Shown: in pieces, positions 29,924 to 54,821 of the stretch
How the letters are laid out: each line of letters begins with the position of its first letter
Position numbering within the stretch: position 1 is the stretch's first letter
Assembly: GCA_018920315.1 (NCBI GenBank)
Contig: JAHLMP010000001.1
Span: forward strand, 68,206 to 132,205
Direction of reading: 5' to 3'
DNA from: Candidatus Aenigmatarchaeota archaeon
GTDB taxonomy: Archaea; Aenigmatarchaeota; Aenigmatarchaeia; GW2011-AR5; JAHLMP01
Length of the DNA: 64,000 nt
Program-made: the position numbers and the translations under genes
The notes under the pieces: model-generated
Told to the model about the DNA's origin: nothing
Database searches by the model: none
The model's input: only the letters and a program-made list of their open reading frames with translations

Positions 29924-30565
29924 TTAAAGCTCGCTATCGATTTCAACTATTCTTACCTTATCCTCTCCTCTTGCTTTTTCTTCTCTTCTCGGTTTTTCTT
30001 CTCTTCTTTTTGATAAAAAGCTTAAAATTTCCGAGACTATTATGTAGAGACAAATAACACCAAATAATATTGTTAATGAGATTACATGAGCTGGAGAGAG
30101 AAGAATATTATTTTTCGTTTTCTCTTCAAGTTCCAATCTCAATCTCTCTACATCAGATAACTGACTCTTTAAAGTACTTATCTCTTCCTCTATTTTATTT
30201 AACTCATTCTCTAATTTTATTTTATTCTCATTCTCTTCTTCAAGAGTTTTTCTAAGCTCTTCTATCTTTTCCTTTCTTTCTTCTAATTTTATAATAGTTT
30301 CTTCTATCATCTTGTTTATTTCATTTATCCTACTTAAATTCTCTATAAATATTCTTCTATAAGTAATTTGCTTTCCATCATAGGTAACGATAACCTGCTC
30401 TTCTGATAAAACTCTGTAAATTGTAGCATTAGAAGATTCGTTGCCCTTAACATCTTGAATTGTATTTTCTTGTGCTGCAAAAACTATAGATGAAGCTAAA
30501 CTAAATGCCAAAATTATTGCTAATAATTCTATTTTCAAAAATTTATTCTTCTTCACTTTCTTCAC
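29924..30565 (-). CDS. secreted coiled-coil protein with C-terminal TM anchor
   Basis: Signal peptide LAIILAFSLASSIVFAAQE, a long heptad-rich segment, TM VISLTILFGVICLYIIV and a charged tail. The anchor is homologous to that of the 324-aa neighbour. Confidence 0.6.
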   Translation of the reverse strand: MKKVKKNKFLKIELLAIILAFSLASSIVFAAQENTIQDVKGNESSNATIYRVLSEEQVIVTYDGKQITYRRIFIENLSRINEINKMIEETIIKLEERKEKIEELRKTLEEENENKIKLENELNKIEEEISTLKSQLSDVERLRLELEEKTKNNILLSPAHVISLTILFGVICLYIIVSEILSFLSKRREEKPRREEKARGEDKVRIVEIDSEL

Positions 30566-31517
30566 CTTTTCTTAAATTTATGTAAATCGAATAGCCCACC
30601 AAGATTATGAATAGTATTGCAACTATAATGACTTGGTTAGAAGAGACAAGATAATGCTCTTTCAATAACTTTTCTATATCGCTTTTCTTTCTATTCTCTT
30701 CATCTATCCTTTCCATAAAACTTAGCTTCTCGCTTTCCTTTTCTTTAATACTTTCATTTATTCTTGATATTTCCCTTCTTATACCGTCTATTTCATATAG
30801 CAGTCTATACTCTTCCTCATCTAATTCCTTAAATCCTGACTTTATTTTACTCAAATCATATAACAATTCTTCTTCTCTTGTTCTATCTTCTATTATCAAA
30901 GGATTTACAATAGGATAATCTACAAAATCTACTGTAAGCTTTCCATCAGAATCGCTTCTGAATATATAAATCATTCTCTCATTAAGATTATAACTCCATT
31001 TTATGTTTGTAAGTCCAACTATTCTTGTAGGCCTTTTTTCAGAATATATAAATATTTCGTTTCCTTTTCCATCAAAACTTATTCTTAGTTGCTTATTGAT
31101 TTTATAATAAGATGTTTCATTTGGATTTATAAATAATCCTGAAGTCTTAGGAAGAATTGCAAACTCGCTAATTCTTGCAAAGCTCCAAGTTTCATTCTCT
31201 TTTATAAATGGTCTAAAAGTAATCCACTTACCATTAACAACATTAACATAAACTTCTATTTCTCTGCTCTCTCCAAGATTCTTAACAAAACCTACATAAA
31301 GCTCCATTCCATTTTTAGTTATAAACTTTTTTACTTCATAGCTTACATTCTCTTCTAAAACAACTAATATATCTTTGCTTTCATTCTCTTCGCTTGTTTT
31401 TGCTTGCAAGATTTTATTCTCATCTTCTATAGCATATATTCTATTCATATTAACAAAGCTAACTAATGCAAAAGTTATCAAAACTCCTATAAACAATAAA
31501 ATTAAACTTCTTCTCAT
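30543..31517 (-). CDS. secreted beta-rich + coiled-coil protein with C-terminal TM anchor
   Basis: A signal peptide, a ~200-aa globular part, a coiled coil and TM VIIVAILFIILVGYSIYI. It shares a 4-nt ATGA overlap with the upstream gene. Confidence 0.6.
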   Translation of the reverse strand: MRRSLILLFIGVLITFALVSFVNMNRIYAIEDENKILQAKTSEENESKDILVVLEENVSYEVKKFITKNGMELYVGFVKNLGESREIEVYVNVVNGKWITFRPFIKENETWSFARISEFAILPKTSGLFINPNETSYYKINKQLRISFDGKGNEIFIYSEKRPTRIVGLTNIKWSYNLNERMIYIFRSDSDGKLTVDFVDYPIVNPLIIEDRTREEELLYDLSKIKSGFKELDEEEYRLLYEIDGIRREISRINESIKEKESEKLSFMERIDEENRKKSDIEKLLKEHYLVSSNQVIIVAILFIILVGYSIYINLRKGEESEEE

Positions 31518-32533
31518 TTCTTCTTCAACCTACTTTCTTCTTTTTTAGATTTTTGATTCAATATCTTTCTAATTATCAAAAAGATTATAACTATCGCGAA
31601 TAAAATGTAAATTGCTGCAAAAGGATCTTTTGCAAATAATGTGAAAAGCCCAGTAAGCCAACCTTCTTTAGCTTCTTCCTTTATTGTAGTTGTTGTCTCA
31701 TTTTTTATAATCTCTATTGTAGTTGTTTCTTCTGGCAATGTAGTTGTAATTGCTTCCTTTTCTTCAACAATCAGATTTATCTTTTCTGTTATATTATTAC
31801 TCTTAGCAAAAATATAATATTCTCCTTTTTCCTTTGGAACTATTTCAATAATTGCTGTTTTTTTATCACCTTCTTTCAAAGATTTTATTGTTGTACTTTT
31901 AATCTCCCAAGGAGTTTGCAAATCTATTGATATATCTACTGGAGGACATGTTGCTTTTATTATTGAAACGTTTATAGCAATTTTCAAACTTTCATTTACA
32001 TATCCCTTAATACTCTCAGGAACATATATCTCGTAAGAAAGTTCGCATTTAGGAGTAAAGTAGCTTGGCCCTGTATAATAAGATGTTCCACCACCTCCTC
32101 CACTTGGAGTTGTCCTCTCTGAGCAAACTCCATTTTTACAATATCCTGAAATACAGGCTACATCATAATAGCATCTTTCTCCATTTTGTAATCTATTAAT
32201 GCTTATATTCAATTCCCTACTTCCTCCTTCTCTTATTTCTTGGGAACCTTCATTAATATCTAAGCCTGCAACCTTTATTATTACATAACCTTCGCTACTA
32301 ATATCCAAAACATAATAAGTTTTTCCATCTTGAATGATTGTTGTTCTATTTGCAAGAAGATTTCCAGAGCTATCATAAGCTTCTACAACAACGCCCTGAG
32401 GAGCATAGCTATTATCTATTTTTACTGTTCCCCAAAATGATATTAATGTTGCTTGAGCAATATGAGAAAATATTATGAATGCTAAAGCTAATTGAATTAA
32501 TGTTGAACTTCTAACAAAAATTTCTTCTTTCAT
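31514..32533 (-). CDS. secreted protein with Cys knot-like motif, Gly run, Thr-rich stalk and C-terminal anchor
   Basis: A signal peptide, CYYDVACISGYCKNGVC, GGGGGTS, TTTLPEETTTIEIIKNETTTTIKE, then GWLTGLFTLFAKD + TM + a Lys-rich tail. Confidence 0.6.
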   Translation of the reverse strand: MKEEIFVRSSTLIQLALAFIIFSHIAQATLISFWGTVKIDNSYAPQGVVVEAYDSSGNLLANRTTIIQDGKTYYVLDISSEGYVIIKVAGLDINEGSQEIREGGSRELNISINRLQNGERCYYDVACISGYCKNGVCSERTTPSGGGGGTSYYTGPSYFTPKCELSYEIYVPESIKGYVNESLKIAINVSIIKATCPPVDISIDLQTPWEIKSTTIKSLKEGDKKTAIIEIVPKEKGEYYIFAKSNNITEKINLIVEEKEAITTTLPEETTTIEIIKNETTTTIKEEAKEGWLTGLFTLFAKDPFAAIYILFAIVIIFLIIRKILNQKSKKEESRLKKK

Positions 32534-32566
32534 TTTAAACCCCCTTATTTTAAAGTATTATGCAGA

Positions 32567-35278
32567 TCATTTCATTTTTATATAATATGGCCAATCTCCA
32601 TTATCGCTAAATTCTTTTAATGTGTTTAAGAAGTCTGGCCTGCTTGGATCATAAGACAACCATGAAGTTCCATTGTAATGGAATACAGCTTCGTATTGTC
32701 CTTGTATTGAGCTTAAAACATAAGGTATAGTGAAGTTTGTAAATCCTGCATCAACCAAAACTCTTCTTGGAAGGAAGAAGTAGTACCACTTATTTACAAA
32801 CGTTGGAATTAATGTCGTTGGATAGACGTTTATAAATGGATAGCCATCCTGATATGCTACAAGCTCTACTGTGTATGTGGCTGAAGTTATATTGCTCCTA
32901 TAGCCGATACAATCTTCTGAATATGCCTTAAATGTTATGTTAACTTTTGTATTATTACAAAGGTTGCAGCTATCAATATAATCGCATAAGTTTAATGTTA
33001 TAGGAGAGTTGCAATTTCTTTCTAACCAATCACTACACCAACTTGAGTTGCAAACCTGATAGTAACATTTAACAATACAATGATCTCTATCCTCAATATT
33101 AATAGTAAAGTTGGTTACAGTTTTTGTAACATTGAAAGGCGTTATTATTCTTGTTATAGGAGGAGTATTATCTAAATAATGTATCTGATACTTTATCTCT
33201 TCTTTATTGCCAAGATTATCTATGCTATAATATTCTATTCTCACATAACCATCTGGAATTCCAACAATATTGAAAGAAGTTGTATAGACATTCCAAACTC
33301 CAGAACAACTTTCATTGCCTGAGCAATATCTATAATAAGTTTTGTTTAATCCGCTGCTTGAATCAGAAGCACTTAATGTAATTGGTGTTGATGAGTTTAT
33401 AGTTTCGCAATTTATACCACAAGTTTGAGCAGAGCATTTTGGATCACCAACAATTTTTGTTGTTGTAGGTGGAGTATTATCTACTGTTACATTTTGACAT
33501 TTTTCTTGCTCTTCGTTTCCTAATTTATCTATTGCCTTGAAGCAAATTCTATGCTCTCCTTCTTGCAAAATCGTAAACTCACAACAATATTCTTGCCAGC
33601 TACCATTATCTATCCTATATAATATCTTGTCAATACCAACGCCTCCCATGCAACCTTTATCTACAGCGCTCAATCTTATCCTTGTTGAGCTATTGATATA
33701 ATCTTTTCCACAAGATGAATAGAAAGGTGTTCCATAAGTCTTATTTGATTCAGGAGCTTCACTATCTACACGATACTTTTGCTCATGCACTTTCTCGCTA
33801 TTTCCAGCAGCATCTACGCAATAATATTGTAGAGTATGATTAGAATCCTCTGTAAAATTAAACTCTACGACACAAGTATTATTATTTTCGCATGTTTTAC
33901 TAAACTTATTCCAATCTCCATTATCTACTTGATATGCCCAATACAAAGTAACATTTGGAAAGTTATCTACGCATGTTAAAGTAATCTTAGTTCTTTGTGA
34001 TATCCATGTAAAGCCGCTTCCTTCAATTTTTGGATTTCCTACAACCTTTGTTGTATTAGGCGCTACTCTATCGCATCTTGGATCATTATAATATATTGTT
34101 GGCTTACAAGGAGCATTTTGCCCTTCTGTTCTAACATCGCAAGAGCAATTTGATAAACAAACTCCATGATCAGGATAATCATAATAAGTTGAGCCATCAC
34201 AATAATCTTGAGGACAAGAGCAATCGCTATCAACTTCGCACTCCGCATTACATTTTTGCTTAGAACAAGTATGTGTTATATTCAAAACTCCTTCGGTGCA
34301 ACGCTTGTTAACTTCATCGCAAGTTGATATAAATCCTGCGAAAAAGTCCCAGGTAAATGGATTGTTATCAGGATCGTTAGTGCAAGTGTCTATTCTTGAC
34401 AAATTATTTGCGCTACAATCTCTTGGAGCTCCTCTACAAACTCCTGCCTGACAAGAATCATTTACTGTACACCATAAGCTATCGTCGCAAGTAGTACCAT
34501 CTGGCTTATTTCTTGTAGCGCCTGTATCAATCCATCTGGTATCTGTAACGTTATAATTGCAATAATCATCACTTGGTTCATAATCTCTATACTCTTGATA
34601 CATTTGCTCTTTTTCTTTACATTCATTTACAGTATCGTTTACCCATCTCTTCTCGGTAGTATTATACCATCCATCTAAATGATCACAATTATATTTCAAC
34701 TCCAGCTTTATAAGATCATGATAGCTATAACCTCCTCCACCATAATCATGAGCCTGAAACTGAATCTTGGAATGGTTTATCTGATCATTAGTATTTAAAA
34801 TATTTGTTAAATCTATTATCTCCATTTTGTCAACATTCGTATTTGTAGTATTCAGATCATATATCTCCCAAGCATTTCTATTTTTATTCCAAATTTTTAA
34901 TCTTGCTTTTAGAATATTGTTACAATCGTCCTGTTTCCATTCAAAATATAGCTTTACGCTTTCTATTGTAATATTTGAAGGAACATCAGGAGAAAAATGA
35001 AATTCTAGATAAATGGAATCGTTATATTCGTGACGATACCACCTTTGAATAGATTTATAATATATGTCATCGCTAATTCTTACGTTCTGCAAATCTGTGG
35101 GAGTTAAAATATAAATAGATACGTTGCTTGTATCTATTCCGCTTGTAGGATAAAATTCTTTAGTTGCGCTTGCTGAAAAACCTAATTGAATTAGAGAGAT
35201 TAAAATTAAATATAGCATGAAAACTTTACTTATTCTAATCCATCCGAATTTTTCTTTTTTATCAAATCTTCCGATCAT
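32567..35278 (-). CDS. 903-aa Cys-rich secreted surface protein with tandem Ig-like modules
   Basis: A signal peptide, very many Cys and N-x-S/T sequons, and the module DGTTCDDSLWCTVNDSCQAGVCRG. There are four ~100-aa repeats delimited by D(N/S)(T/E)(P/A)P...(G/T)(N/D/T)P with ...D..GN.E... ends. Confidence 0.7.
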   Translation of the reverse strand: MIGRFDKKEKFGWIRISKVFMLYLILISLIQLGFSASATKEFYPTSGIDTSNVSIYILTPTDLQNVRISDDIYYKSIQRWYRHEYNDSIYLEFHFSPDVPSNITIESVKLYFEWKQDDCNNILKARLKIWNKNRNAWEIYDLNTTNTNVDKMEIIDLTNILNTNDQINHSKIQFQAHDYGGGGYSYHDLIKLELKYNCDHLDGWYNTTEKRWVNDTVNECKEKEQMYQEYRDYEPSDDYCNYNVTDTRWIDTGATRNKPDGTTCDDSLWCTVNDSCQAGVCRGAPRDCSANNLSRIDTCTNDPDNNPFTWDFFAGFISTCDEVNKRCTEGVLNITHTCSKQKCNAECEVDSDCSCPQDYCDGSTYYDYPDHGVCLSNCSCDVRTEGQNAPCKPTIYYNDPRCDRVAPNTTKVVGNPKIEGSGFTWISQRTKITLTCVDNFPNVTLYWAYQVDNGDWNKFSKTCENNNTCVVEFNFTEDSNHTLQYYCVDAAGNSEKVHEQKYRVDSEAPESNKTYGTPFYSSCGKDYINSSTRIRLSAVDKGCMGGVGIDKILYRIDNGSWQEYCCEFTILQEGEHRICFKAIDKLGNEEQEKCQNVTVDNTPPTTTKIVGDPKCSAQTCGINCETINSSTPITLSASDSSSGLNKTYYRYCSGNESCSGVWNVYTTSFNIVGIPDGYVRIEYYSIDNLGNKEEIKYQIHYLDNTPPITRIITPFNVTKTVTNFTINIEDRDHCIVKCYYQVCNSSWCSDWLERNCNSPITLNLCDYIDSCNLCNNTKVNITFKAYSEDCIGYRSNITSATYTVELVAYQDGYPFINVYPTTLIPTFVNKWYYFFLPRRVLVDAGFTNFTIPYVLSSIQGQYEAVFHYNGTSWLSYDPSRPDFLNTLKEFSDNGDWPYYIKMK

Positions 35279-35471
35279 TTATCAATCACTCTTTACTACT
35301 TGCTAATAACTTAAAAAATAATCTTTAAATTATTATTTGCAAATACAAACGAATTACAAAGTGTATACAAGTTTTTCTTGAGTTTAACGCAATTTTTATT
35401 TAATTTTTTTGCTGTTCTCAATAGCATCAAAATTTTATCTTTCATAACATCACATTTACAAAAATTTTATT

Positions 35472-38400
35472 TCATCGACCTTTTCGAATTGCTTTTCTAA
35501 ATTCAACTTTTTTGTTCGATGATCCATTGTTATTAAAATTATCTCCATTCTTCTTTTTCCATTCCTCATACTTCTTGTAAGCATTCTCTATAGTTTTCTT
35601 TGTTTTCAAATGATCGAAAGTATAGAATCCTGTAACCGAAATAAAAATTATGGAGATGATAAATATAGTTAACAAAATTTTATCTGATCTGAATAATGTA
35701 ATCATTCCAGTAATTAGCGTTCCTTTCTCTTCTTTACTAATTGGTGTTTCCATTACTGAGCTTGTTTCAATTATTTCGCTGATATTCTCCTCTTCAATTG
35801 TTGTACTTTCTTCTATTTCACTCTGATTTTTAGGGTACTCTGGAGTATAAATTGTTGTTGTAATCTTTTCATTTACTTTTAAGCTTATCTTTTTAGAGCA
35901 AAGTAAAGATGACGTATCAAAAGCATCGAATGTAATATTATAATTTCCACTTCTAACACCCTTCAAATTCAAAATAAATGTTGCATTAGCTTGAGATTCT
36001 ATCTTTGATATTTGCGAAGTTATATTATACCAATCTTTGCTTATTCCGCTTAAGCTCGCGCGTACATTATATAAAGCAATATTTCCAACATTTCTTACGT
36101 TTATTTCTATCATTTTGTTATCTCCTTCATCTAAAACAATTGAGCTTGGAGCGTAGCATTCTAATCTTTTGAAAGATGATGAAGATGTTGTAGTCACTAT
36201 AGTCGATGTAGTTGTAGTATTCTGACAAGGAGCGCAAGGACCGCCGCAATCTATTCCTTCCTCTCCTTGATTTCTAATGCCATCGTTGCAAGTTTCTATT
36301 TCAATTGCTCCAGAGTGCATTAATCCAGAAATTATATAATAATTATTTTGAATTATGCAAGAGTATCTTGCTCCATTACTTGCATTATAGATGCTTCCAT
36401 CGCATTTTATCAAAAACTCGTTGCTAGAATTACAATTTCCGCTTATTTCGCTAATACTACTGATTTCAGAATCTTTTATGCAAACATGATTTGCATTAAG
36501 CTTTCTATCAACCCAGATCGTTTTAGTTTGATTTAAAAGTAAAGAAGAATTTAAGCCATAAATTACTAAAGATCCTCTACTAGAGTTTTCATTTTTCTTT
36601 ATTACTATGTTACTCAAATTTAGATTTCTCGTGCTGAAATTGAAATAAAACTTTACAAGAGTATTATTATTAGAATCTTTCAAAACTATATCTTTTACAT
36701 TTTCGAATTTTCTCGACAAATTTGAAGAGTTATCTATATTTATTATCAAAGTTCTTTCATTTCCATTAACAAAAAGTTTAATTCCTTCGTATAAAACTAA
36801 TCCATTCTCTCTTATTCTTGTTTCATTGCCATCTACCCAAGTCTCATTAGTTACATTATATTTACATCCTTCCAAAGAGCAATAGTGTGTGCGATACTCT
36901 TTTTTTATTTCTTTTCTTTGAGTTTTATAATCGATATCTACCCATCTAGTTTCATTTGTTTCATACCAACCATCAAAAGAACTACAACTTATATTCTCAT
37001 AGATACATGAGCAATTATTACAAATGCCTTTAATAAATATATCTCCCTCACATCTCGATACGCAATCTTCATTGCAGCTACATTCTCCTTCTACTCTAAT
37101 TCCTCTACAAACTCCTGCTTGGCAAGTATCATTTACTGTGCACCATAAGCTATCATCGCAATCAATACCATCTTCTTTATTAATTATGTTACTTGTTTCA
37201 ATTGTTTCTCTTTCCAGAACTTCATAAATACATCCATTTAAAGAGCATCTATATTCTCTTCTTTCCTTTACAACAATCTCTCTTTTTTTACATTGATCTA
37301 TATCAACCCATTCACTCAAATTATATATTCCATTCAAAGGTGAGCAATAAGAATGATTCAACTCATGCATACATTCTGCGTTTTCTACATTACAATAATC
37401 TATAGTACATTCTATGTTATCATCACAACTTTTTTGATAACAAGCACAACCTTGAGAATCTACAACCTCGCCTAGTGTAGTATTCAAGCAATTATCCATT
37501 CTATCTTTCACTCCATCTCTATCGCTATCATCTATTACCCATTCCAATGCTCTTGTGAACATTTCTTTCGCTGCATCTGTCCAATACAAAGGATAATTAA
37601 CTCCGAAGAACACTATTCTTTCTTTATTTTTATTTCCATTTGAAAGCGTTGTATTTGCTTCTGCATAAGCAATTATTATTGTTGAACTACTTGTGCTATA
37701 TGTCGCTAAACTATTCAAATTCGTTTTATATCTATCTATGAAAGTTATTGGATATCCAGAAGAGAAATGAACATCTATTGTGCCATTATACCCTTGAGTT
37801 ATTGGATGCGAAGAGTTTGTTATTGTAATGCTATGTATTCCACTTGATGTTACCTTTCCAATACCACCGCTTGAGATCCACCCCCAATCATAAAGATAAC
37901 CACATCCAACGACAATAGTAGGATAATTATTTACAGGAATGTTAGCAGCAAAAGCCCCGAGATTATCGTTAGATAAGCATTCTCTAGCAAGTATTACAAT
38001 TGCATCAAAATTTGAGAAATCTATTAAGCTATCTACAAGAGTAATATGATAGCCAAGTGCATTCAACCTTTCTATTATTGGCTTTTCATGATAATCGCTA
38101 ATTCTACTTGCATTCTTTACAACAACAGCGATATTTGCATTACCATAAGCAAATGAAATATTAGCAAAGAATATCAAAGATAAAAAGAAGATTAAAAATA
38201 TTGCATTTTTCTTCATCCATTTCTTTATCATCTTCTTTCCTAATGGCTCTTTTCTTCTATTCCAAATTATGAAGATAGCTATCGCAACTATAGCAACAAG
38301 AGCAATAGCTCCATATCTTGCAATTGCTACAATCATTCCACTTGGAGCATTGCCCTCTTTAATTGTAGTTGTTGTAAAGTTAGCGCTTTGGTTAGCGATA

Positions 38401-39803: not shown

Positions 39804-39983
39804 CTCAATAGCGCCCCTATAATAGGTATTATCCTTAAGTGATTACTAAATTCCATGTATCTATTATTCAGTAGCAAGATTTAAAATATTATTTTGTAGT
39901 GCAAAAGGGTTGCAAAGGTAATATGAGAAAAAATGGAATGAAATTGGAGAAATTGAAAAAGAAAACAAAATAAAAAAATATAT

Positions 39984-41945
39984 TTAGCTTGTTAATGTCC
40001 CATTTGCATATAGCTTTATAAAGTAACCTGCATTTCTATTTACTTGCCATGCCTCACCAGGATTCATCCTTCTCTCAGAAATCTTCCATGTATTTCTCCA
40101 GAGCTCTGCGCGGCAATGATCAACTATGTAGAGCGTTGAATTAAGGGTAAAGTTGAATGGACAAGTTACTCTCCAACTCTGTGCCACAAGCAATTCTGTT
40201 GTTCCGTCATGCGTTACTTCTGGTTCACAGTCTGCTTTGCAGCTTGTTGGTGTTTCCCCCTTTTCCCACTCACAAATACCATTACCACAATGCTCTTCCC
40301 ATGGTTCTGGTTGCTGCTCGCTTAAGCATTGATAAAATGGATTGAATGTTGCCATTGAGCAACTCAAAACTTTTTGTATAAATTTCTGAATTATTTCAAG
40401 CTTGGCCCAAATTCCCTGAACTTCTCTATCTATTTTTGTTTTCCATTCATCAATTTCTTTATTATAATCTTCTATTTTTTCTATCTTTTGCTCTATTGTA
40501 TTTATTTTATTTTGCATATCCTCTACTTTCTCTCTCAAAGCTTTGAAATCAGCTCCCAAATGCTTAAACCTATTTTGCTTTGAAACATCTCTTGCAATCG
40601 CCCAAACTCCTTCGCTCGTAACTTCATCATATTCTTCTATGTCGAACCATCCTTCTGATGTTTGATTAACTATGAGCCATGTTGCTGCTTTTGCTGCTTT
40701 TTCATCTTCTCCCAACATCTCTAGAACCATTTTTGCATATGCTGTTGTTTGTGCATCTGGTGTATTTGGGTTACTTTCATCAGTCGGCCACCATCCTTCT
40801 TCTCTTTGTCCATTGATCAATTTTTCCTTTGCTAAGTTTACCAAATCTGTATATTTTCCTGTTGTTTGCATAGCTTCTATTATTCCTACAAGTCCAAGGT
40901 AATAATAAGTTATTGTATTATCGTTTATATCAAAATATCCTCCGCCTATTTTCTCTTTCATCAATTCTGCCATTGCATCTGCTTCTAATCTATAATCTAT
41001 TCCCGGATATTCGCTTAGTTTGTAGAGCGCTACTATCCAATCTCCTACATCCCAAAGAGCGACAGCATTTATTCCTTGAGATTGTCTTAAATTAAAAATC
41101 TCATTAGCAATTGCTCTGGCTCCTTTTATAGGGTCTGTAGGATTAAAACAATTTCTTTTACCTTCGTATCTTTGCTTTGCTAGATTTGCTATCATATCAT
41201 CATTTTTCAATAATGCGAGATGTGCTAAGAATAATATGTCCTTGTTGCTATCACATCCACTATTACTTTCAGTCCCAGGAGAATAACAAGTAAGTCCTGT
41301 TTCAGCGCAGGCTGAATTATAAGTTGGTGCGTGTGTCTTTATATACTGCAAAGACTTTTCCATTGCTTGCATGTAATCTTCATCTTCTGTAATCTTGTAA
41401 GCATAGTAGAGTCCCATGGAAGTTACTCCTGCCAAATTTGTGCAGGAAGGGCTTCCCTTAGGCCAACCCCAACCTCCATCAGAGTTCTGATTATTTATTA
41501 ATCTATCAGCTCCTTTGATAATTGATTGTGTTGCATTCAATTGTGTCGAGGAATACTCAACAAAAACTATTGTTGTATAATATCCTATCGGATTCTCTGG
41601 ATAAATTGTGAAAGTTGTTGTATAAATTCTACATTTCGCTGTGTTTGGATTTTCTTTTATACATTCTCCTGTAGTTGTTTGTCCTAATGCTTTCAAAATA
41701 AAAGATGTGCCATTTGGATAGAAAACTCTTGCTTTTACAATCGCATTATTTAAATTTGCTACATCATCCGGATCGCAAACCAAAGCACAAACTCTTACCT
41801 CTGTTCCATGAATATCTGAAAATGTTTCTGTAACTATTTGATTATTTACAACTTCCCACTTTGAAGCTACATAAGGTATATTATCCGCTATCGCTATAGA
41901 TGATATTAGAAGCAAACCTAAAAATAGTTCAAATATCTTTTTCAT
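39984..41945 (-). CDS. 653-aa secreted protein: beta domain + prenyltransferase/terpenoid-cyclase-like alpha-alpha toroid repeats + coiled coil + conserved C-terminal domain
   Basis: A signal peptide; repeats NQNSDGGWGWPKG, GQREEGWW and NQTSEGWF; a coiled coil; and the C-terminal CRAELWRNTWKISERRMNPGEAWQVNRNAGYFIKLY, shared with the 419-aa protein. Confidence 0.65.
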   Translation of the reverse strand: MKKIFELFLGLLLISSIAIADNIPYVASKWEVVNNQIVTETFSDIHGTEVRVCALVCDPDDVANLNNAIVKARVFYPNGTSFILKALGQTTTGECIKENPNTAKCRIYTTTFTIYPENPIGYYTTIVFVEYSSTQLNATQSIIKGADRLINNQNSDGGWGWPKGSPSCTNLAGVTSMGLYYAYKITEDEDYMQAMEKSLQYIKTHAPTYNSACAETGLTCYSPGTESNSGCDSNKDILFLAHLALLKNDDMIANLAKQRYEGKRNCFNPTDPIKGARAIANEIFNLRQSQGINAVALWDVGDWIVALYKLSEYPGIDYRLEADAMAELMKEKIGGGYFDINDNTITYYYLGLVGIIEAMQTTGKYTDLVNLAKEKLINGQREEGWWPTDESNPNTPDAQTTAYAKMVLEMLGEDEKAAKAATWLIVNQTSEGWFDIEEYDEVTSEGVWAIARDVSKQNRFKHLGADFKALREKVEDMQNKINTIEQKIEKIEDYNKEIDEWKTKIDREVQGIWAKLEIIQKFIQKVLSCSMATFNPFYQCLSEQQPEPWEEHCGNGICEWEKGETPTSCKADCEPEVTHDGTTELLVAQSWRVTCPFNFTLNSTLYIVDHCRAELWRNTWKISERRMNPGEAWQVNRNAGYFIKLYANGTLTS

Positions 41946-42129
41946 TTCTCCACCTTACTCCTTTGGGTATTTACTCTTGCTCGATGCTTATGGCAGGGCT
42001 TATAGAAAGATTTAAAAATGTTACTTCCTAATAGTAAATAATGCCCTAAGCGTCGAGTAGAGCAAGGCTCTCCAACGGATGCCTTGTTATAGCGCCCCTC
42101 CTCGGCGCTCTCCTTGAGAAAGGAGTATG
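41946..42129 (-). promoter_or_regulatory. GC-rich structured leader element, copy A (184 nt, abuts ATG of 653-aa gene)
   Basis: It is identical to copy C over 71 nt (42059-42129) and over the last ~30 nt. It has three local hairpins plus a long helix. See findings. Confidence 0.6.
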
Positions 42130-42433
42130 AAGATTTTGAGATTTTTAGCTGTTTATTTATAAACTTCAATATTGTCAATTCTTTAGCTCTCAGAAAATTT
42201 TGCAAGATTACTTTTGATTGCCAAAGATTTTGAAATAAGTTCATGGATCTCTTCGCTTACAACATAATTACATATGAATTATTTTTGAATTTCGATTGAA
42301 ATACAAAAAACATACAATTGTAATTTAGAAAAATTTACTTTTATTGATTTCTATACTTGAGTGGGTAATTGATTTGGAATACAAAGAAATTACAAATGTA
42401 ATACAATCAATTAAAGGCTAAAAAGAATTCAAT

Positions 42434-42676
42434 TCAAATCTCTCTAACTATTCTTTCTAAATTTTTCAAAACTTTCAATTTTTTTATTCCAGTAAAAAGT
42501 TTCTTCGTGAGATAGTGAAGTATCTTGGAAAAATCATTTTCTTTCTCGTTTATTATTTTATTTTTTTTAAGAATCTCAAAGATGTTTTTATATGATTGTT
42601 TCGTCTCTGCTCTAATGTTGCTTACTATCTCATTTTCTAAATCTATTGCACAATTTACAATCGAAAATACAAGCAT
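42434..42676 (-). CDS. 80-aa hypothetical; faint DUF86/HEPN-like pattern lacking the R-x4-6-H motif
   Basis: CAIDLENEIVSNIRAETKQSYKNIFEILKKNKIINEKE resembles the middle of DUF86 proteins. An 18-aa ORF fragment upstream (~42760-42815) suggests a decayed longer gene. Confidence 0.25.
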   Translation of the reverse strand: MLVFSIVNCAIDLENEIVSNIRAETKQSYKNIFEILKKNKIINEKENDFSKILHYLTKKLFTGIKKLKVLKNLERIVREI

Positions 42677-42862
42677 AGAACAAATATAAAATTTTATCCA
42701 ATTTTCTTTAATCTTCTGCGTCCTTTATTTTTGTACTTCAAGTTCTCTCTAGTATTTTCTTATATCACATAAGATTTTTCCAACCTTAGCTTTATCAAAT
42801 TTCATATTTTACAATATCGCGGGATTGAGATCTTCTTAGAGAATTTCCATAATAATTTAACT

Positions 42863-44206
42863 TTACACTGCCTTGCCGATTATATATATCCTTCCTCTAT
42901 CGAACGTTCCTATGCAAGGTATTGGGTATTGAATCTTAAACTCTACTTCCATTAATCCTTGATTTGTTAGAATGTGTTCCATAACAGATTTTTGATTGTT
43001 TGGATTTGGCATTGGTATTGGGAGAGCACCATAACATGTTGATCCTTGAAATTCGTTCTTTTCGCAAACTCCATTTCCATTAATATCTTTCCAATAACTT
43101 CCGTCTTTTATTTTACATCCGCTATTCTGATTATATTTGCTCATTTGTACCCATCCTTGCCAGCTCTGCCATTGGGTCCCGCTCCAAGCTCTATACCACA
43201 TGTATTTTTCTATCTCAAGAACGTTGCTGTCTGGACACTTTGCAGCTCCTTGAGAAGCATATAGATCAGTACCTGCTATAAAAGTAAATAGATTTACTCC
43301 TCCTTCTCCGTTGTTCTTCACCTTAATCTTGTTCAAGGAGTGAGCAACTCTTGTTACTGGATCCATAGGACCAAATCTTATTGGTTGGCCATCACTAGTT
43401 GCAACCATCATACCCAAACGTGGATTAAAAAACCATTCTTCGCTGTGCGTTGCGCTTGTAACATTGTTCCTAGAATCAAAAACCTTTAATACTAACTCAT
43501 TTTCTCCATACCAGTTGTCTTCTACGGTTATTATTATTTCAAATGCCTTGTCTGTCATAGGATTAAGAGGTGCGCCCAATCCATCGCATGAATATGGAAG
43601 ATATTGGAGAGGATTTGCTATTGCTTCCTCGCTTCCATTTACAAAAGCTTTAACATAACCAATATCTAATGCTCCATTTGGATCCCTCACAACTATCTTA
43701 TACTTTATTCTTTCTCCTGTGAATGCATACTGGCTAGTTCTCCAATTTAATGGATTAACACCTGGTGGATTTGCTTCCATACCTATATCTAACTCTCTAT
43801 CGTAAATGCATATTGTTGGCGAAAAATCTCCTCCTATAACCGGGATTTTTACCTCAACTCTTAAGGTTATATAAAATGTGTCTGGAACCAAATTTGGTTG
43901 TGCATATATTATTATCGTAAATTTTTTCGGAACATTTGGTTCTAACATAATGCTTGGAGGATATATAATTTGAAATCCTTCTGTATTAGTGTTTTTCGCT
44001 TCAACGCTTACATTCAACTCTGCTTTTACTGTGTTATTTCCATTCCAAATTGCTGTTATCTCTTTTGTAACAGATTCTCCTGCAACCATTTGAATAGTGA
44101 ACTCGCTTGGGTTAAGTATTACTGATTGAGCATAAGAAATGCTAATAAATGAAAGCAATATTGCATTTAATAAAAATGTTATTAATACTCTTTTCATATC
44201 AATCAC
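42863..44206 (-). CDS. 447-aa secreted protein, paralog of the 359-aa protein with an extra N-terminal beta-sandwich
   Basis: A signal peptide. The C-terminal ~330 aa align with ORF 47380..48459, including the identical 28-aa block SDGQPIRFGPMDPVTRVAHSLNKIKVKN and the ending IQYPIPCIGTFD.G.IYIIGKAV. Confidence 0.7.
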   Translation of the reverse strand: MIDMKRVLITFLLNAILLSFISISYAQSVILNPSEFTIQMVAGESVTKEITAIWNGNNTVKAELNVSVEAKNTNTEGFQIIYPPSIMLEPNVPKKFTIIIYAQPNLVPDTFYITLRVEVKIPVIGGDFSPTICIYDRELDIGMEANPPGVNPLNWRTSQYAFTGERIKYKIVVRDPNGALDIGYVKAFVNGSEEAIANPLQYLPYSCDGLGAPLNPMTDKAFEIIITVEDNWYGENELVLKVFDSRNNVTSATHSEEWFFNPRLGMMVATSDGQPIRFGPMDPVTRVAHSLNKIKVKNNGEGGVNLFTFIAGTDLYASQGAAKCPDSNVLEIEKYMWYRAWSGTQWQSWQGWVQMSKYNQNSGCKIKDGSYWKDINGNGVCEKNEFQGSTCYGALPIPMPNPNNQKSVMEHILTNQGLMEVEFKIQYPIPCIGTFDRGRIYIIGKAV

Positions 44207-45230
44207 TCAAATAAAAAATTATCACCTCTTTTAAAACAGGTGTTATTGTCGCGTTGGTAGTTTCAAAAAATGCTTTAAATTTTATGTATCTCGTGTTATC
44301 ATGACCACTCCATATATCGCTATCGCTTGTTGTATAATAAGTTGAACTTGAGCCATCAGGACCAACGAAATTCCAAGTTATGCCATCGTTGTTTGTTGCT
44401 AGTTGGAATTTTAATGAAGTTCCAGTTGGAATATCAGCATCCCAATATAACTTCTTCCATTTAGTTGATGCTGAGTTAGAATCGAAAGCTTGAGATTCAA
44501 ATACTCCAGAAGTTGCATAGCTCTCGACATAGGTTTTAAAGTATATGTCATCATTCGCTTGCTCAGTCCAAGTAGAACCACCATCATCAGATTTAAATCT
44601 TGCTCCATCAGGATAAAAATTGCCCTTATCTTTAATTCTTATTTTATAATCTGCTGTTCCTCTTGATTTTTGTCTTATTACTATTGCATAACTTGTTCCT
44701 GCAATAACATCTGGTGGCGTAGAAAAAGTAAAGTTATACTCTTTATCACTTCCGGTAAAATTAGTATGCGGAATTTCTGCGCTAGCCAAAATCGTGCTTC
44801 CTGGCTTTCCGCCATCAACATTTCTTAATTCTACAACCAAAGGTTGTGGATTATTTCCATCTTGTCCTTTTTTAGCCTTTATTATTACGCTTACCAACTT
44901 GCCTGTTTTTCCTGCTATAAAAGTTTGTGCTTCGTACTTATTAAGCTCAATTTTGCCGCTGTCTTTATCTTCTAATGTTTGACTTTGATCTAAAGATACT
45001 GTTTTAGCTAGCTCAACCTCTCCATTATCAATATTTGTAATTACAACATTTGTTTTAATTCCAGCATTAAAATCCTCATAGGTAGTTTGAATCCATTTTG
45101 GAGATTCTAATACTATGATAGTGGCTACTATTCTTCCATAATAATTCAAAATATCTGCAAACACTATACTTATGAGTATTAATGTTACTAATACTGTTGT
45201 TATTCCAATTCTCCTATTCATTTCATTCAT
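44199..45230 (-). CDS. 343-aa secreted/anchored beta-rich protein, unknown family
   Basis: An N-terminal TM followed by the ILNYYGRIVATIIV motif. It overlaps the downstream gene by 8 nt. Confidence 0.6.
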   Translation of the reverse strand: MNEMNRRIGITTVLVTLILISIVFADILNYYGRIVATIIVLESPKWIQTTYEDFNAGIKTNVVITNIDNGEVELAKTVSLDQSQTLEDKDSGKIELNKYEAQTFIAGKTGKLVSVIIKAKKGQDGNNPQPLVVELRNVDGGKPGSTILASAEIPHTNFTGSDKEYNFTFSTPPDVIAGTSYAIVIRQKSRGTADYKIRIKDKGNFYPDGARFKSDDGGSTWTEQANDDIYFKTYVESYATSGVFESQAFDSNSASTKWKKLYWDADIPTGTSLKFQLATNNDGITWNFVGPDGSSSTYYTTSDSDIWSGHDNTRYIKFKAFFETTNATITPVLKEVIIFYLSD

Positions 45231-45308
45231 CTCTATTTTTCAGGTTAAAATTGTTTTTCAAAATTTGAAAAAAAAAGAAAAAAAGAATAAAAAATCAAGA
45301 TATTAGAG

Positions 45309-45929
45309 TTATCTTGGAACTATATTGATTGTTATCGCATAGGTTCCTGGAATTGCGTTCGGCTTCATTCCTATCTTTACACCACAGAACTTCTGGATCA
45401 TTCCTTCACCAAGTTGGTCGGGTGCTGTTAGTTTGCAAGTTCCGCCACTACAATTCCAATATTGCTGGCTTTTTTGAAGTGGTATTGGAGTAGAGTGATC
45501 GCATGTTTGTGGTTCTTGATCACTTGCTTGATATGTTGCCCATTTTACTTCAAGTAATGACAAGCCGTCAAGAAGATCTTCTGGAAGTATATACTCCCAA
45601 TTGAAATTTATATAGTCCCAACTTCCTTCAACTGGTAGATTGTTTTTTATATAGAATTTATAATCAAATGTTTTGTTATCTCCTCCAACTATGCTTCCAG
45701 TAGGATATGTTAGTGTACATTGTCCGTAATTATCTTTGCCACAAGATTTCCATGTTGAACCATCATCTGAAATTACTAAGGATTGTGTAACATTTACAGT
45801 TCCTGTTATAATTCCGTAATAAGTTAGCAATGCTGCGCTTGCGATTCCTCCAAGAGCGATAAGCATTAATAGAAGCGCTGATACTTCCTTTCCAAGTATT
45901 ACAAATCTCTTAGATAATAATCCTTTCAT
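45309..45929 (-). CDS. 206-aa secreted/anchored protein, unknown family
   Basis: The N-terminus KRFVILGKEVSALLLMLIALGGIASAALLTYYGIITGTVNV, a motif shared with the 343-aa protein. Confidence 0.6.
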   Translation of the reverse strand: MKGLLSKRFVILGKEVSALLLMLIALGGIASAALLTYYGIITGTVNVTQSLVISDDGSTWKSCGKDNYGQCTLTYPTGSIVGGDNKTFDYKFYIKNNLPVEGSWDYINFNWEYILPEDLLDGLSLLEVKWATYQASDQEPQTCDHSTPIPLQKSQQYWNCSGGTCKLTAPDQLGEGMIQKFCGVKIGMKPNAIPGTYAITINIVPR

Positions 45930-46057
45930 TCTTCCAACTCACCTTTTACTTGGGTATTTAGCCTTCTTTAAGAATATTTTTGGAGAAGGCCAAGGCTCTC
46001 CAACGGATGCCTTGTTATAGCGTCCCTCCTCGGCGCTCTCCTTGAAAGAGGAGTATG
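45930..46057 (-). promoter_or_regulatory. GC-rich structured leader element, copy B (128 nt, short variant)
   Basis: It shares the core CATACTCC...GGAGAGCCTTG with A and C (3 substitutions) and has a different short hairpin in place of the long helix. It fills the gap between the 419-aa gene stop and the 206-aa gene ATG. Confidence 0.55.
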
Positions 46058-46070
46058 AAAGGCTATGCAC

Positions 46071-47276
46071 TCAACTCACCCTTCCATAAAGTTTGATATA
46101 ATATCCAGCTCCTCTATTCACAACCCAGCTTTCTCCAACTTGCATTATTCTTTCAGATACATACCAAGAATTTCTCCAAAGCTCTGCTCTGCAGTTTATT
46201 ATCGTGTAAGTAACTCCATTATAATTGAATGTAGAAGGACAAACAACGCTCCAATTCTCAGTTATGAAAATCTCAGTAGGATTAGTAGGTATTGTGGTTG
46301 TTGTGCTTTGACTTATCGTAGTGGTTGTTGTTTGTCCAGGAACTGTAGTAGTTTGTTGAATTGTTGTGGTTGATGATGTAGTAGTTGTTGAAGTAGTAGG
46401 TATTGTGGTTGTTGTGGTTATAGGAGAGTTACAAATTGAAAAGCTATGAACAGAGCAGATAGCAAGCTTTATTAAATTAACAAGATTTTCTAAGAAGCTT
46501 AATCTTGATCTTGTATCTTCTAAACAATTCCAAAGAGTTTCTGCTTTGAAGCTGCTTGAAGACCAATTAGAATAATATTTGCCATCGTAAGCTCTAACTC
46601 TCCAATAATATTTTACGCCCTCGCTTATTGGGATTTTTATCGAAGTGTTAGGAACAATTCCTTTATCTAAAATAATAGAAAAATCGCTGTACTTGCTTAT
46701 CTCATATTGATAAGCAATAATACTACTATCTTGATCACTTGCCTGGCTCCAAGAAAGTATTGCATAGTTTCTACAAATCCTTTCATTGTTTGAAGGGCTT
46801 ATTATACTAGGTTGAGAAGGAGCCTTGCTATTGTTAGAATTTCCTAAATAGTTTGGATTGATATTTACAATTGTTTCCATACTTAAGCTTATTGTTCCAT
46901 CATTTGCTGTGGCTATTATCTTACCGCTTCTTGAGATTGCATCAGAAAGTATTATATAAAGCGTTACATTCTTTGATTCTCCTGCATCTAATTCAAATTC
47001 TCTCTCAGATAGATGAACAAAATCTTTTATGTTATCAGTAACGCTTAATGTAATTCTTTCAGGAATGCTTCCTGGATTCCCATATCTTAATTGATGAGAA
47101 ACAATTGTTAATTCTCCCACTTTAACATTAGGATTAGAAACAACATTATAAGGAATTGAAAGCTCTGCAGCATAAGAATTTGAGAATAGAAATGAGATTA
47201 TTAATATTAAGATTAACCTTCTTACATTTTTTACTAAATTTTCATATTCTATTTCTCTAATTTTTACCATTTTCAT
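46071..47276 (-). CDS. ~400-aa secreted protein: beta-sandwich + FN3-like + Thr-rich linker + conserved C-terminal domain
   Basis: The track start at 47330 is TTG; the ATGs at 47276/47270 precede the signal peptide LILILIISFLFSNSYAAE. It has the FN3-like PSQPSIISPSNN...YYWRVRAYDGKY, a TTTTIPTTSTTTTSSTTT linker, and the C-terminal CRAELWRNSWYVSERIMQVGESWVVNRGAGYYIKLY. Confidence 0.7.
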   Translation of the reverse strand: MKMVKIREIEYENLVKNVRRLILILIISFLFSNSYAAELSIPYNVVSNPNVKVGELTIVSHQLRYGNPGSIPERITLSVTDNIKDFVHLSEREFELDAGESKNVTLYIILSDAISRSGKIIATANDGTISLSMETIVNINPNYLGNSNNSKAPSQPSIISPSNNERICRNYAILSWSQASDQDSSIIAYQYEISKYSDFSIILDKGIVPNTSIKIPISEGVKYYWRVRAYDGKYYSNWSSSSFKAETLWNCLEDTRSRLSFLENLVNLIKLAICSVHSFSICNSPITTTTTIPTTSTTTTSSTTTIQQTTTVPGQTTTTTISQSTTTTIPTNPTEIFITENWSVVCPSTFNYNGVTYTIINCRAELWRNSWYVSERIMQVGESWVVNRGAGYYIKLYGRVS

Positions 47277-47379
47277 CAGCTTTTTAATTTTAAATCTCAA
47301 ATTTACGCCAAAAGGTTTGAAATTTTTCAAAAAACAAAAAAGAAAAAATCAAAAAATTCTTTTTAGTTTTCTATTTACT

Positions 47380-48459
47380 TTACACTGCCTTACCAATTAT
47401 GTATATCTTTCCGCTGTCGAATGTTCCTATGCATGGTATTGGATATTGAATCTTGAATTCTATCTCTAGCAATCCTCCATTTGTTAGTATGTGCTCTAGT
47501 ACATCGTCATCATCATCTGGATCTGGCATAGGCACTGGAAGACCTCCGTAGCATGTTGGTCCTTTATACTCGGTTGAAACATCGCACATACTATTGGTGT
47601 TAGTATCATTCCAATAGTCGGATGTTAAATTATTTCCTACATTGCATCCATCGTTCTGGTTGTATTTGCTCATGTTTGTCCATCCCTGCCAGCTCTGCCA
47701 TGAAGTGCCTGACCATGCCCTGTACCACATGTATTTTTCTATTTCAAGAACATTGCTTGTTGGACACTTCGCTGCTCCAGTTGTGTCAAACAAATCAGTA
47801 CCTGCTATGAAAGTAAATAGGTTAACTCCTCCTTCTGCTGTGTTCTTTACCTTAATCTTGTTCAAGGAGTGAGCAACTCTTGTTACTGGATCCATAGGAC
47901 CAAATCTTATTGGTTGGCCATCACTTGTTGTAACTTGCATTCTCAACTCTGGGTTAAAGAACCACTCTTCGCTGTGCGTTGCGCTTGTTGCTACATTCTG
48001 AGAGTTGAAGACCTTCAAAAGAACTTCCATCGGACCATGCCAACTGTCTTCAACTGTTATTATTATCTTGAATCTCTTGTCTGTAGTGCTATTAACACGT
48101 CCAAGCCCGTCACAAAATATATTACCTAATGATATTTCGCTCGCCAAAGCCTCCTCATGTCCTCCGACAAAGGCCTTTACAAAGCCTATGTCTAATGCTC
48201 CGTTAGGGTCTCTTACTATAACATCATATATTATTCTCTCTCCTGTAAATGCATAAAGACTAGTTCTCCAATCCAATGGGTTAACCCCCGGTGGATTTGC
48301 TTGTGTTCCTATTTCTATATCTCTGTGATAAATACATATCGTTGGTGGCAAGTCGCCTGGCTGTGCTGATACTCCAACATCGCCAACAACTACATCAGCA
48401 AAAGCAGGCACTACTAGTAACAAACTTGCTAGTATCGCGAATAAAGCAAACTTTTTCAT
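47380..48459 (-). CDS. 359-aa secreted protein, paralog of the 447-aa protein
   Basis: Signal peptide FAILASLLLVVPAFA, and alignment with 42863..44206 over its whole mature length. Confidence 0.7.
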   Translation of the reverse strand: MKKFALFAILASLLLVVPAFADVVVGDVGVSAQPGDLPPTICIYHRDIEIGTQANPPGVNPLDWRTSLYAFTGERIIYDVIVRDPNGALDIGFVKAFVGGHEEALASEISLGNIFCDGLGRVNSTTDKRFKIIITVEDSWHGPMEVLLKVFNSQNVATSATHSEEWFFNPELRMQVTTSDGQPIRFGPMDPVTRVAHSLNKIKVKNTAEGGVNLFTFIAGTDLFDTTGAAKCPTSNVLEIEKYMWYRAWSGTSWQSWQGWTNMSKYNQNDGCNVGNNLTSDYWNDTNTNSMCDVSTEYKGPTCYGGLPVPMPDPDDDDDVLEHILTNGGLLEIEFKIQYPIPCIGTFDSGKIYIIGKAV

Positions 48460-48643
48460 TTCTCCACCTTACTCCTTTGGGTATTTACTTCTACTTGGCG
48501 CTTAGGGCAAAGCTTACAGAAAGATTTAAAAATGTTACTTCCTAATAGTAAATAATGCCCTAAGCGCCGAGCAGAGCAAGGCTCTCCAACGGATGCCTTG
48601 TTATAGCGCCCCTCCTCGGCGCTCTCCTTGAGAAAGGAGTATG
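48460..48643 (-). promoter_or_regulatory. GC-rich structured leader element, copy C (184 nt, abuts ATG of 359-aa gene)
   Basis: Same length and register as copy A. It has a perfect 12-bp inverted repeat GGCGCTTAGGGC/GCCCTAAGCGCC around an AT-rich 48-nt loop. Confidence 0.6.
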
Positions 48644-50526: not shown

Positions 50527-50527
50527 G

Positions 50528-50572
50528 ATATTATATTCACAAACATTTTTAAAAAGTTTGTGAATATAATAT
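50528..50572 (-). promoter_or_regulatory. palindromic promoter/operator of paralog 1
   Basis: Perfect 17-nt arms ATATTATATTCACAAAC / GTTTGTGAATATAATAT flank ATTTTTAAAAA. The centre is 24 nt upstream of the ATG at 50526. Confidence 0.55.
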
Positions 50573-50597
50573 AATGTATTCCTTATCTTTTCATCAT

Positions 50598-51923: not shown

Positions 51924-51930
51924 AAGTTAT

Positions 51931-53367: not shown

Positions 53368-53377
53368 AATGTATTTA

Positions 53378-54811: not shown

Positions 54812-54821
54812 AAAAGAAATA

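Follow-up and report, generated by a model that had tools for sequence, protein, structure and literature searches.

The stretch of DNA analysed here (64 kb; hereafter the window) comes from Candidatus Aenigmatarchaeota, a DPANN archaeon with a small genome, and the same label is attached to its proteins and their relatives in the source records. By exact sequence the window was placed on the NCBI MAG GCA_044343345.1, which has near-identical strains. Positions 29924-48459 of the window form an island of 18.5 kb in which 11 consecutive genes, all on the minus strand, encode proteins that are predicted to be exported. Within it a GC-rich repeat, interpreted here as a structured RNA element, occurs in three copies, each lying on the gene strand a short way ahead of one of the genes for proteins of 359, 206 and 653 amino acids (aa). 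An earlier note on this DNA had described the run of minus-strand genes with signal-like N-termini, and its open reading frame (ORF) coordinates proved exact; the shared RNA element, a gene fusion and a toxin remnant are additional to it. The description that fits the island best, as a plausible reading, is that of a DPANN surface-protein regulon made up of a conserved core, modular clade-specific members and the shared RNA element. On a 577-kb contig carrying one of the island proteins, the island accounts for ~3% of that contig.

A hydrophobic segment opens each of the 11 proteins, with a small-x-small (AxA-like) site after it, as called by a Kyte-Doolittle heuristic. By the same heuristic a C-terminal transmembrane helix with a charged tail is present in only four of them (213, 324, 339 and 1443 aa), so that the anchors and basic tails ascribed to many of the proteins are found in these four but are not a general feature; the 1443-aa ORF has one further, internal transmembrane helix. 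Cys makes up 2.4% and Thr 8.2% of island residues, compared with 1.2% and 3.6% in the 29 other ORFs of the window, a doubling of Cys and more than a doubling of Thr that agrees with the earlier description of the proteins as rich in both. N-x-S/T sequons reach 2.23 per 100 aa in the island vs 0.35 in the same 29 ORFs (6.4-fold). The reported sequon density therefore holds relative to the rest of the window, but only two proteins exceed composition-matched shuffles, with 32 sequons vs 12.1 +/- 3.0 for the 903-aa protein and 55 vs 27.5 +/- 4.4 for the 1443-aa protein, in both cases by ~6 standard deviations.

The proteins are assembled in part from common modules, as had been proposed. In BLASTP comparisons the 447- and 359-aa proteins were 67% identical across 359 aa, the 903- and 1443-aa proteins had a Cys-rich module in common (48% over 96 aa), the 1443- and 419-aa proteins a sandwich plus an FN3-like unit (30% over 266 aa), and the 653- and 419-aa proteins their C-terminal 64 aa (53%). 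Two gene overlaps had been cited as signs of operons. The ATGA stop/start overlap of the 339- and 324-aa genes (31514-31517) is as described, while the 8-nucleotide (nt) overlap at 44199-44206 requires a GTG start, the two genes lying 1 nt apart with the public ATG start; the 343- and 447-aa genes are tightly coupled with either. Pfam gave nothing above threshold in the island proteins, and in NCBIfam only the 903- and 343-aa proteins reached a named domain family above curated cut-offs (OmpL47-type and choice-of-anchor R, respectively, both sequence-defined surface-protein domains without an established function), which bears out the view that most of these proteins lie outside named families. 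Additionally, PDB sequence searches with the 359-, 653-, 903-, 1443-, 206- and 343-aa proteins and with two profiles of a domain of the 1443-aa protein (domain B, below) returned no meaningful match. The N-terminal signals, the anchors, the sequon enrichment and the surface- or adhesin-type domains, together with the CARDB, TSP3, PKD and cadherin-like modules of homologs, support the extracytoplasmic location that had been predicted for the island proteins.

The phylum-conserved core

The gene that we call famA (47380-48459) encodes a 359-aa secreted protein which, judging from its homologs and a structural model, consists of two tandem Ig-like (immunoglobulin-like) beta-sandwich domains. Its 447-aa paralog (42863-44206) has an extra N-terminal sandwich domain of ~95 aa. 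The family comprises 79 homologs or clusters, the named members of which are almost all from Aenigmatarchaeota; most homologs are 40-85% identical, 19 columns are invariant in 50 sequences, and no Pfam domain or S-layer match was found in 50 members. Members lack an anchor, and several paralogs are often present per genome. In the AlphaFold2 model (pLDDT 84.7) the two sandwiches follow a disordered N-terminal extension, whose residues 13-32 have pLDDT below 50. Foldseek searches of PDB and BFVD yielded only generic matches to Ig-type adhesins, pilins and integrins, with query-normalised TM-scores below 0.3.

A pair of genes lies ~2-9 kb downstream of famA in seven distant Aenigmatarchaeota loci. 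The first member of the pair encodes a protein of 157-192 aa with a signal peptide, an 'IRPPRM' sandwich and a transmembrane anchor, and the second an anchored protein of 600-1000 aa with domain B at its start. The sandwich and domain-B genes overlap by 4-13 nt in loci L005, L011, L012 and L018, and are fused in frame in L007, in at least nine further family representatives and in the window, where the 1443-aa ORF, previously read as a single gene, corresponds to two genes that are separate in relatives. Its N-terminal part (aa 1-520, 38244-39803) has a signal peptide, an 'IRPxRM' sandwich, an FN3-like unit, a Thr/Ser linker of ~110 aa, a second sandwich, a transmembrane helix and a basic loop. 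Its C-terminal part (aa 521-1443, 35472-38243) has a second signal-like helix, domain B, a TSP3-like Ca site, Cys-rich modules, a CARDB-like sandwich, a transmembrane anchor and a basic tail. At the junction (aa ~494-550, nt 38150-38320) the transmembrane helix, a Lys/Arg-rich loop and the second signal-like helix follow one another, an arrangement with which the fused protein can, as predicted, keep both ectodomains outside the cell. Because the fusion recurs, the sandwich and domain-B proteins may be expected to act together. Across the loci compared, the conserved and syntenic core consists of famA and the sandwich/domain-B pair only, the rest of the island being clade-specific; the conservation of the locus anticipated by the earlier note thus extends across the phylum for the core but stops at the immediate clade for the remaining genes. 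Throughout the phylum the core is syntenic next to housekeeping genes.

Domain B (37488-38141) was assigned by AlphaFold2 and Foldseek to a class I glutamine-amidotransferase/ThuA/GIFT-like fold (pLDDT 92.9, pTM 0.90), with a Foldseek probability of 1.00 and TM-scores of 0.55-0.61 to the ThuA-like and glutamine-amidotransferase (GATase) chains 4pxy, 1t0b, 2a9v, 1qdl and 2d7j. It also matched the N-terminal domain of IFT52 (5fms, 5fmr) and the oligosaccharyltransferase (OST) chain 6c26_B at 0.53-0.56, no better than the GATases; we take 6c26_B to be OST48/Wbp1 of the yeast OST complex, which has a GIFT domain. Neither Cys, His nor Glu occurs among the conserved columns of 26 domain-B sequences, in which only P, G, W, T, V, I, F and D are invariant or nearly so, and in eight members no ThuA or GATase family of Pfam was matched at E up to 10. 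Word-indexed homolog searches returned nothing with domain B as a single sequence and one protein with it as a profile. In an exhaustive search of the library's representatives, domain B was found in 386 cluster representatives, from Aenigmatarchaeota and Pacearchaeota, mostly at the N-terminus of proteins of 600-3100 aa that also carry Big_9, PKD, cadherin-like, CARDB, LTD, TSP3 and MopE-type modules. TSP3 and CARDB are sub-threshold or unassigned in the window protein (TSP3 E = 0.062 in Pfam) but clear in its homologs, and three Asp of the TSP3-like motif that follows domain B are nearly invariant. From the modelled fold and these columns, domain B is probably a non-catalytic head that binds a ligand or glycan, beside a Ca site. 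The earlier remark that none of the proteins resembles an enzyme accordingly needs a distinction: domain B has no conserved Cys, His or Glu, but its fold is that of ThuA and GATases, and a terpene-cyclase-like toroid, itself sub-threshold, is present in the 653-aa protein.

The structured RNA element

The copies of the RNA element all lie on the minus strand, copy 1 (long form, 48460-48656) immediately ahead of famA, copy 2 (short form, 45930-46070) upstream of the 206-aa gene and copy 3 (long form, 41946-42142) immediately ahead of the 653-aa gene. Each copy leads a group of genes: 359 and 419 aa; 206, 343 and 447 aa; and 653 aa onward. From 5' to 3' the element consists of a P1 hairpin, P2 (AGCGCC-GAGGAGG-GGCGCU), an AUAA linker, P3 (CAAGGC-AUCCGUUGGAGA-GCCUUG), a P4 hairpin that is present in most copies, the invariant sequence UAAAUACCCAAA, a Shine-Dalgarno sequence and the start codon. 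A covariance model matched the three copies at 48569-48656 (99.2 bits), 45983-46070 (90.6 bits) and 42055-42142 (98.3 bits). The P4 segment of copy 1 folds with -41.1 kcal/mol (z = -7.6), and the z-score for P4 of copy 3 is -4.6. In 296 kb the model had 14 matches, all on the gene strand and, where checked, each directly upstream of famA, a 653-like gene or the 206-aa gene. Outside the window, copies were found in L023 (9819-9909 and 17720-17803) and in L024-L028, and the matches include diverged copies that precede famA in L004 (5652-5728, 37 bits), L014 (9760-9850, 32 bits) and L017 (1499-1587, 13 bits).

Conservation differs among the parts of the element. Compared with another genus, in which famA is ~72% identical and the element precedes famA and the 653-like/538-aa genes, P2 and P3 show 100% identity. 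Their loops are invariant in sequence. In diverged copies P2 and P3 are kept by compensatory changes (A-U to U-A, G-C to A-U, A-U to G-C). The observed covariation measures were reached by at most 4 of 500 shuffles; no excess over shuffles was seen in the number of further pair types. P1, on the other hand, is formed by at least three unrelated stem sequences and P4 by at least six, and despite this unrelatedness the stems always fold (z from -2.6 to -8.4 vs shuffles). The element is most simply explained as part of the transcript, because in L004, L017, L026 and L027 the interval from its core to the start codon is too short for a promoter or has no sequence that could serve as one. It has the conserved structure upstream of a coding region, and the covariation, by which a cis-regulatory leader is recognised.

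Searches against Rfam 15 (4227 families) gave no match at gathering thresholds in the 64-kb window, the best matches in E-value mode being far below gathering; we found no description of the element in the literature and identified no ligand, terminator or obvious alternative fold that would sequester the Shine-Dalgarno sequence. Two public ORFs over the element, of 107 aa (48456-48779) and 100 aa (41942-42244), were rejected as coding and are probably spurious, because nucleotide conservation extends to all codon positions and because in other copies the frame is broken by an indel of 1 nt in the loop of P2 and by variable insertions in P4. A short upstream ORF starting at 'ATGCTC' exists in some relatives and is absent from the window copies, L014 and L027. 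A scan for sigma-70 promoters and terminators showed no excess over shuffles and is uninformative for an archaeon. In L013, famA is preceded at 3500-3630 by a different GC-rich multi-hairpin region with a UUCG-capped stem and no covariance-model match, which may be a highly diverged or an independent leader. Candidate roles for the RNA element are mRNA stabilisation and a ligand- or protein-responsive switch. We raise tentatively, and think it rather less probable than not, that P1-P4 constitute a new class of archaeal cis-regulatory RNA, responsive to a ligand or protein and defining a surface-gene regulon of famA, the swappable-head 653-like genes and the 206-343-447 operon. If true, remodelling of the DPANN cell surface would be tied, through a regulatory RNA, to a signal from the environment or from contact with a host.

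Clade-specific proteins and genomic setting

Closer relatives of the window locus (L022/L023 and L024-L028) keep famA followed by a 419-like gene and also have 653-like and 1443-like genes and a 339-like fragment, in an arrangement that varies and is interspersed with toxin-antitoxin and AAA_14 ATPase genes. The 419-aa ORF (46071-47330; 401 aa in public gene calls) combines a signal peptide, a beta-sandwich, an FN3/Rha78A-N-like Ig domain, a Thr-rich linker and a 65-aa C-terminal domain, and has orthologs after famA in L023 (E = 4e-129) and L028 (E = 1e-117). In the near-identical strain L020 (GCA_038999675.1), ~500 bp are missing relative to window 46023-46521, the 3' part of the 419-aa gene, and the counterpart is a 249-aa product without the Thr-rich linker or the shared C-terminal domain.

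Modularity is most evident in the 653-aa protein (39984-41945), which has a signal peptide, an N-terminal beta domain, a prenyltransferase/terpene-cyclase-like alpha/alpha toroid head, a coiled coil, a Cys-rich module and the shared C-terminal domain. Full-length orthologs are present in L024 and L026. In L023, a 538-aa protein (17832-19448) has the same C-terminal 190 aa (E = 3e-83), comprising the coiled coil, the Cys module and the 65-aa C-terminal domain, and carries in place of the toroid a BNR-type head (weak BNR_2 match in Pfam); the head has been swapped. The toroid itself scores 23.8 bits for SQHop_cyclase_N against a cut-off of 26.2; like the TSP3 motif it is thus sub-threshold in Pfam, and of the modules named in the earlier note it is TSP3 and CARDB that became clear in homologs. 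The 65-aa domain may be a docking module for the 419- and 653-aa proteins, neither of which has an anchor.

The 903-aa secreted protein (32567-35278; 32 sequons) has a signal peptide, an N-terminal domain, a Cys-rich module, three OmpL47-type Ig-like domains and a C-terminal domain; the three stretches matching NF047446 (115.5 bits vs a cut-off of 40) correspond to the Ig-like repeats that had been noted as bounded by DNTPP. The 343-aa protein (44199-45230) has an N-terminal signal or anchor, a choice-of-anchor R domain (NF041539, residues 89-229, 43.9 bits vs a cut-off of 30) and a C-terminal beta domain. It also matches phrog_877 (E = 1.2e-17) and phrog_5986, both of function unknown and one with a profile 1141 positions long, so its domains occur in phage proteins too. 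The 206-aa exported orphan (45309-45929) has a signal peptide and a small Cys-containing beta-type domain with an Asp-box-like SDDGSTW motif, and had no match in Pfam, NCBIfam, PHROGs or PDB sequences. At the downstream end of the island are three anchored proteins: the 339-aa protein (31514-32533), with a signal peptide, an ectodomain, a Thr-rich stalk, a C-terminal transmembrane helix and a basic tail, and with a partial ortholog in L025 (E = 4e-50); the 324-aa protein (30543-31517), with a signal peptide, an ectodomain, a coiled coil and a C-terminal transmembrane helix; and the 213-aa protein (29924-30565), whose gene overlaps the 324-aa gene by 23 nt and whose signal peptide, coiled coil, C-terminal transmembrane helix and charged tail are accompanied by Pfam and NCBIfam matches to coiled-coil families only.

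An 80-aa ORF (42434-42676) had been counted within the surface series. It aligns to aa 53-142 of a 147-aa ORF of L023 (E = 1.8e-22), where a 143-aa HepT-like gene is called, and its equivalent in strain L002 has a weak HepT-like Pfam match; from these alignments we classify it as the decayed C-terminal remnant of a HepT toxin and not as a surface protein. Its antitoxin partner is missing, and GCA_038999675 has a differently decayed version of 69 aa.

The window is AT-rich (~30% GC), and the GC content of the island is slightly above that of its flanks. Archaeal housekeeping genes surround the island (RNA polymerase subunit B, GatE, FEN1, deoxyhypusine synthase, PAC2 and arginyl-tRNA synthetase), confirming the archaeal context, and both this locus and its counterpart in L022/L023 are flanked by a major facilitator superfamily (MFS) transporter gene. 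Directly upstream of the island, 49231-56264 (minus strand) encodes five tandem ATPase paralogs of 426-452 aa with AAA_14 and DUF4143 domains. In L022/L023 there are two AAA_14 copies, interleaved with HEPN/nucleotidyltransferase toxin-antitoxin pairs, and the region is therefore considered plastic. On the plus strand beyond the other end of the island, 26086-28383 encodes a 765-aa polytopic membrane protein with an N-terminal sandwich-like ectodomain and no Pfam match, in surroundings of only ~24% GC; it is preceded at 22843-26050 (plus strand) by genes for a CARDB-containing protein and a MacB/FtsX-type permease and by a 237-aa ORF. Comparison of strains for diversifying selection was uninformative, since the available strains are 99.8-100% identical.

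Interpretation and comparison with known systems

We consider it probable, with some reservation, that the locus is a lineage-specific DPANN surface-protein island whose exported proteins form an outer adhesive coat. The proteins would be exported and glycosylated, and some would be held at the surface by their own transmembrane anchors; the 419- and 653-aa proteins may dock through their shared 65-aa C-terminal domain. The heads of the coat (ThuA/GIFT-like, toroid or BNR-type, OmpL47-type Ig and choice-of-anchor R) would bind glycans or partner-cell surfaces, and the shared RNA element would co-ordinate or stabilise expression. The coat may serve in host attachment. All DPANN archaea cultivated to date are described as ectosymbionts needing direct host-cell contact (bioRxiv 10.1101/2023.02.24.529834).

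Several points weigh against an adhesive coat of this kind. The signal peptides were called with our own hydrophobicity and AxA heuristic, not with SignalP or DeepTMHMM. The conservation of famA is unusually high for an adhesin and speaks more for a structural or machine component than for a binder of a specific host, and for 8 of the 11 proteins no relatives could be detected in the distant Aenigmatarchaeota loci. The island is placed in a plastic region, with toxin-antitoxin remnants and the five AAA_14 paralogs. Copy 2 of the RNA element starts right after the 419-aa stop codon and may thus be intercistronic instead of a 5' leader, and the docking role of the 65-aa domain is something that we purely infer.

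The strongest competitor, though one we think unlikely, is a general cell-envelope or S-layer-associated structural coat without specific host attachment, in which famA together with its partners would be a constitutive part of the wall and the RNA element would stabilise mRNA. The high conservation of famA, its lack of an anchor and its frequent paralogs are in keeping with this, as are the strong Shine-Dalgarno sequences and stable hairpins upstream of the genes. The island also has sequons and Thr-rich stalks, which are typical of archaeal envelope glycoproteins. However, S-layer families (S_layer_N/C, DUF1608/MSTP-like) had no Pfam or NCBIfam match in the island proteins, and the invariant loop sequences of P2 and P3 exceed what simple stabilisation would need. 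S-layer proteins predicted for Aenigmatarchaeota are MSTP-like and of 745 and 794 aa (bioRxiv 10.1101/2024.05.28.596244), lengths that fit no ORF here; famA was accordingly rejected as the S-layer protein, having no family match, with no island ORF near those sizes in a comparison by length only. More doubtful is extracellular capture or scavenging of glycans, with heads that bind or process environmental or host polysaccharides and feed a metabolically reduced cell. The resemblance of domain B to domains of ThuA-like proteins, an OST subunit and IFT52, which are associated with sugar metabolism and glycosylation, the BNR-type head that replaces the toroid in L023 and the flanking MFS transporter gene would suit it, but no glycoside-hydrolase or lyase family rose above threshold in Pfam or NCBIfam, the conserved columns of domain B offer no Cys, His or Glu, and no binding-protein-dependent transporter lies inside the island.

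We rejected as very improbable an integrated virus or mobile element with surface-like structural or receptor-binding proteins. The neighbouring toxin-antitoxin remnants and AAA_14/DUF4143 arrays, the two PHROG families matched by the 343-aa protein and the slightly raised GC content recall such an element; yet there is no integrase, capsid, terminase or tRNA target, famA and the 206- and 343-aa proteins have no relatives in IMG/VR, the BFVD matches to famA are generic Ig folds, and the core stands in synteny beside housekeeping genes across the phylum. An adhesive coat of lineage-specific surface proteins is the reading that we prefer. The analysis narrows the targets to a phylum-conserved trio, namely famA, the small anchored sandwich protein and the giant with the ThuA/GIFT-like domain, the last two linked by Rosetta-stone-type fusions; the shared C-terminal domain on swapped-head proteins is a further concrete target. 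Also, the RNA element marks surface genes that are probably co-regulated, and its motif can serve to locate this regulon in further genomes.

Known surface structures resemble the island to differing degrees. The earlier note had allowed for placement in a known S-layer or pilus system, for which no match was found in Pfam or NCBIfam. For a type IV pilus or archaellum, the island proteins have no class III signals (their long h-regions lead to AxA-like sites), and no PilB/FlaI, PilC/FlaJ or peptidase family occurs in or around the island. For TasA, camelysin and archaeal fibre subunits there was no Pfam or NCBIfam match, and PDB sequence searches with famA and the 206- and 343-aa proteins gave nothing relevant. 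The predicted mature N-termini of the 206- and 343-aa proteins share 'L.YYG.I..T..V', and a TasA-like donor-strand arrangement was considered for them and set aside, as it had no profile, PDB or pairwise support. The best Foldseek matches of famA are Gram-positive two-Ig adhesins and pilins, AgI/II C-terminal domains (5dza, 4ofq), SdrG/MSCRAMM (1r19) and BcpA. These differ from famA in that query-normalised TM-scores are 0.16-0.27 with root-mean-square deviations of 15-20 A, there is no sequence similarity, and no LPXTG or sortase context exists; the resemblance is generic. Domain B, unlike ThuA, GATase and GIFT proteins at large, is extracellular and N-terminal, is followed by TSP3-like Ca motifs and has no sequence-level match in Pfam or PDB. 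Leptospira OmpL47-type and choice-of-anchor proteins have domains in common with the 903- and 343-aa proteins, which differ from them in the architecture around these domains and in belonging to an archaeon.

Structured 5' leaders are known on abundant envelope-protein mRNAs, such as bacterial ompA and S-layer genes. Like these leaders and like riboswitches, the RNA element is a conserved multi-hairpin structure with covariation-supported stems, placed after the presumed promoter and before the Shine-Dalgarno sequence in genes for exported proteins; it differs from them in having no Rfam match and in lying upstream of surface-protein genes in DPANN archaea. The closest parallel to the proteins themselves is with surface proteins of other DPANN archaea, those of Nanoarchaeota (PMC6142677) and SPEARE of Nanohaloarchaeota (PMC6642349), which occupy a few percent of a tiny genome and have a proposed role in host contact. 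Both they and the island proteins are large, mostly extracytoplasmic, anchored and multi-domain, with adhesion-type modules. In contrast to them, the island has no serine-protease, laminin-G or restriction-endonuclease domains (Pfam, NCBIfam) and no ORF over 3000 aa, and is instead a cluster of 11 smaller proteins with a phylum-conserved core and a shared RNA element.

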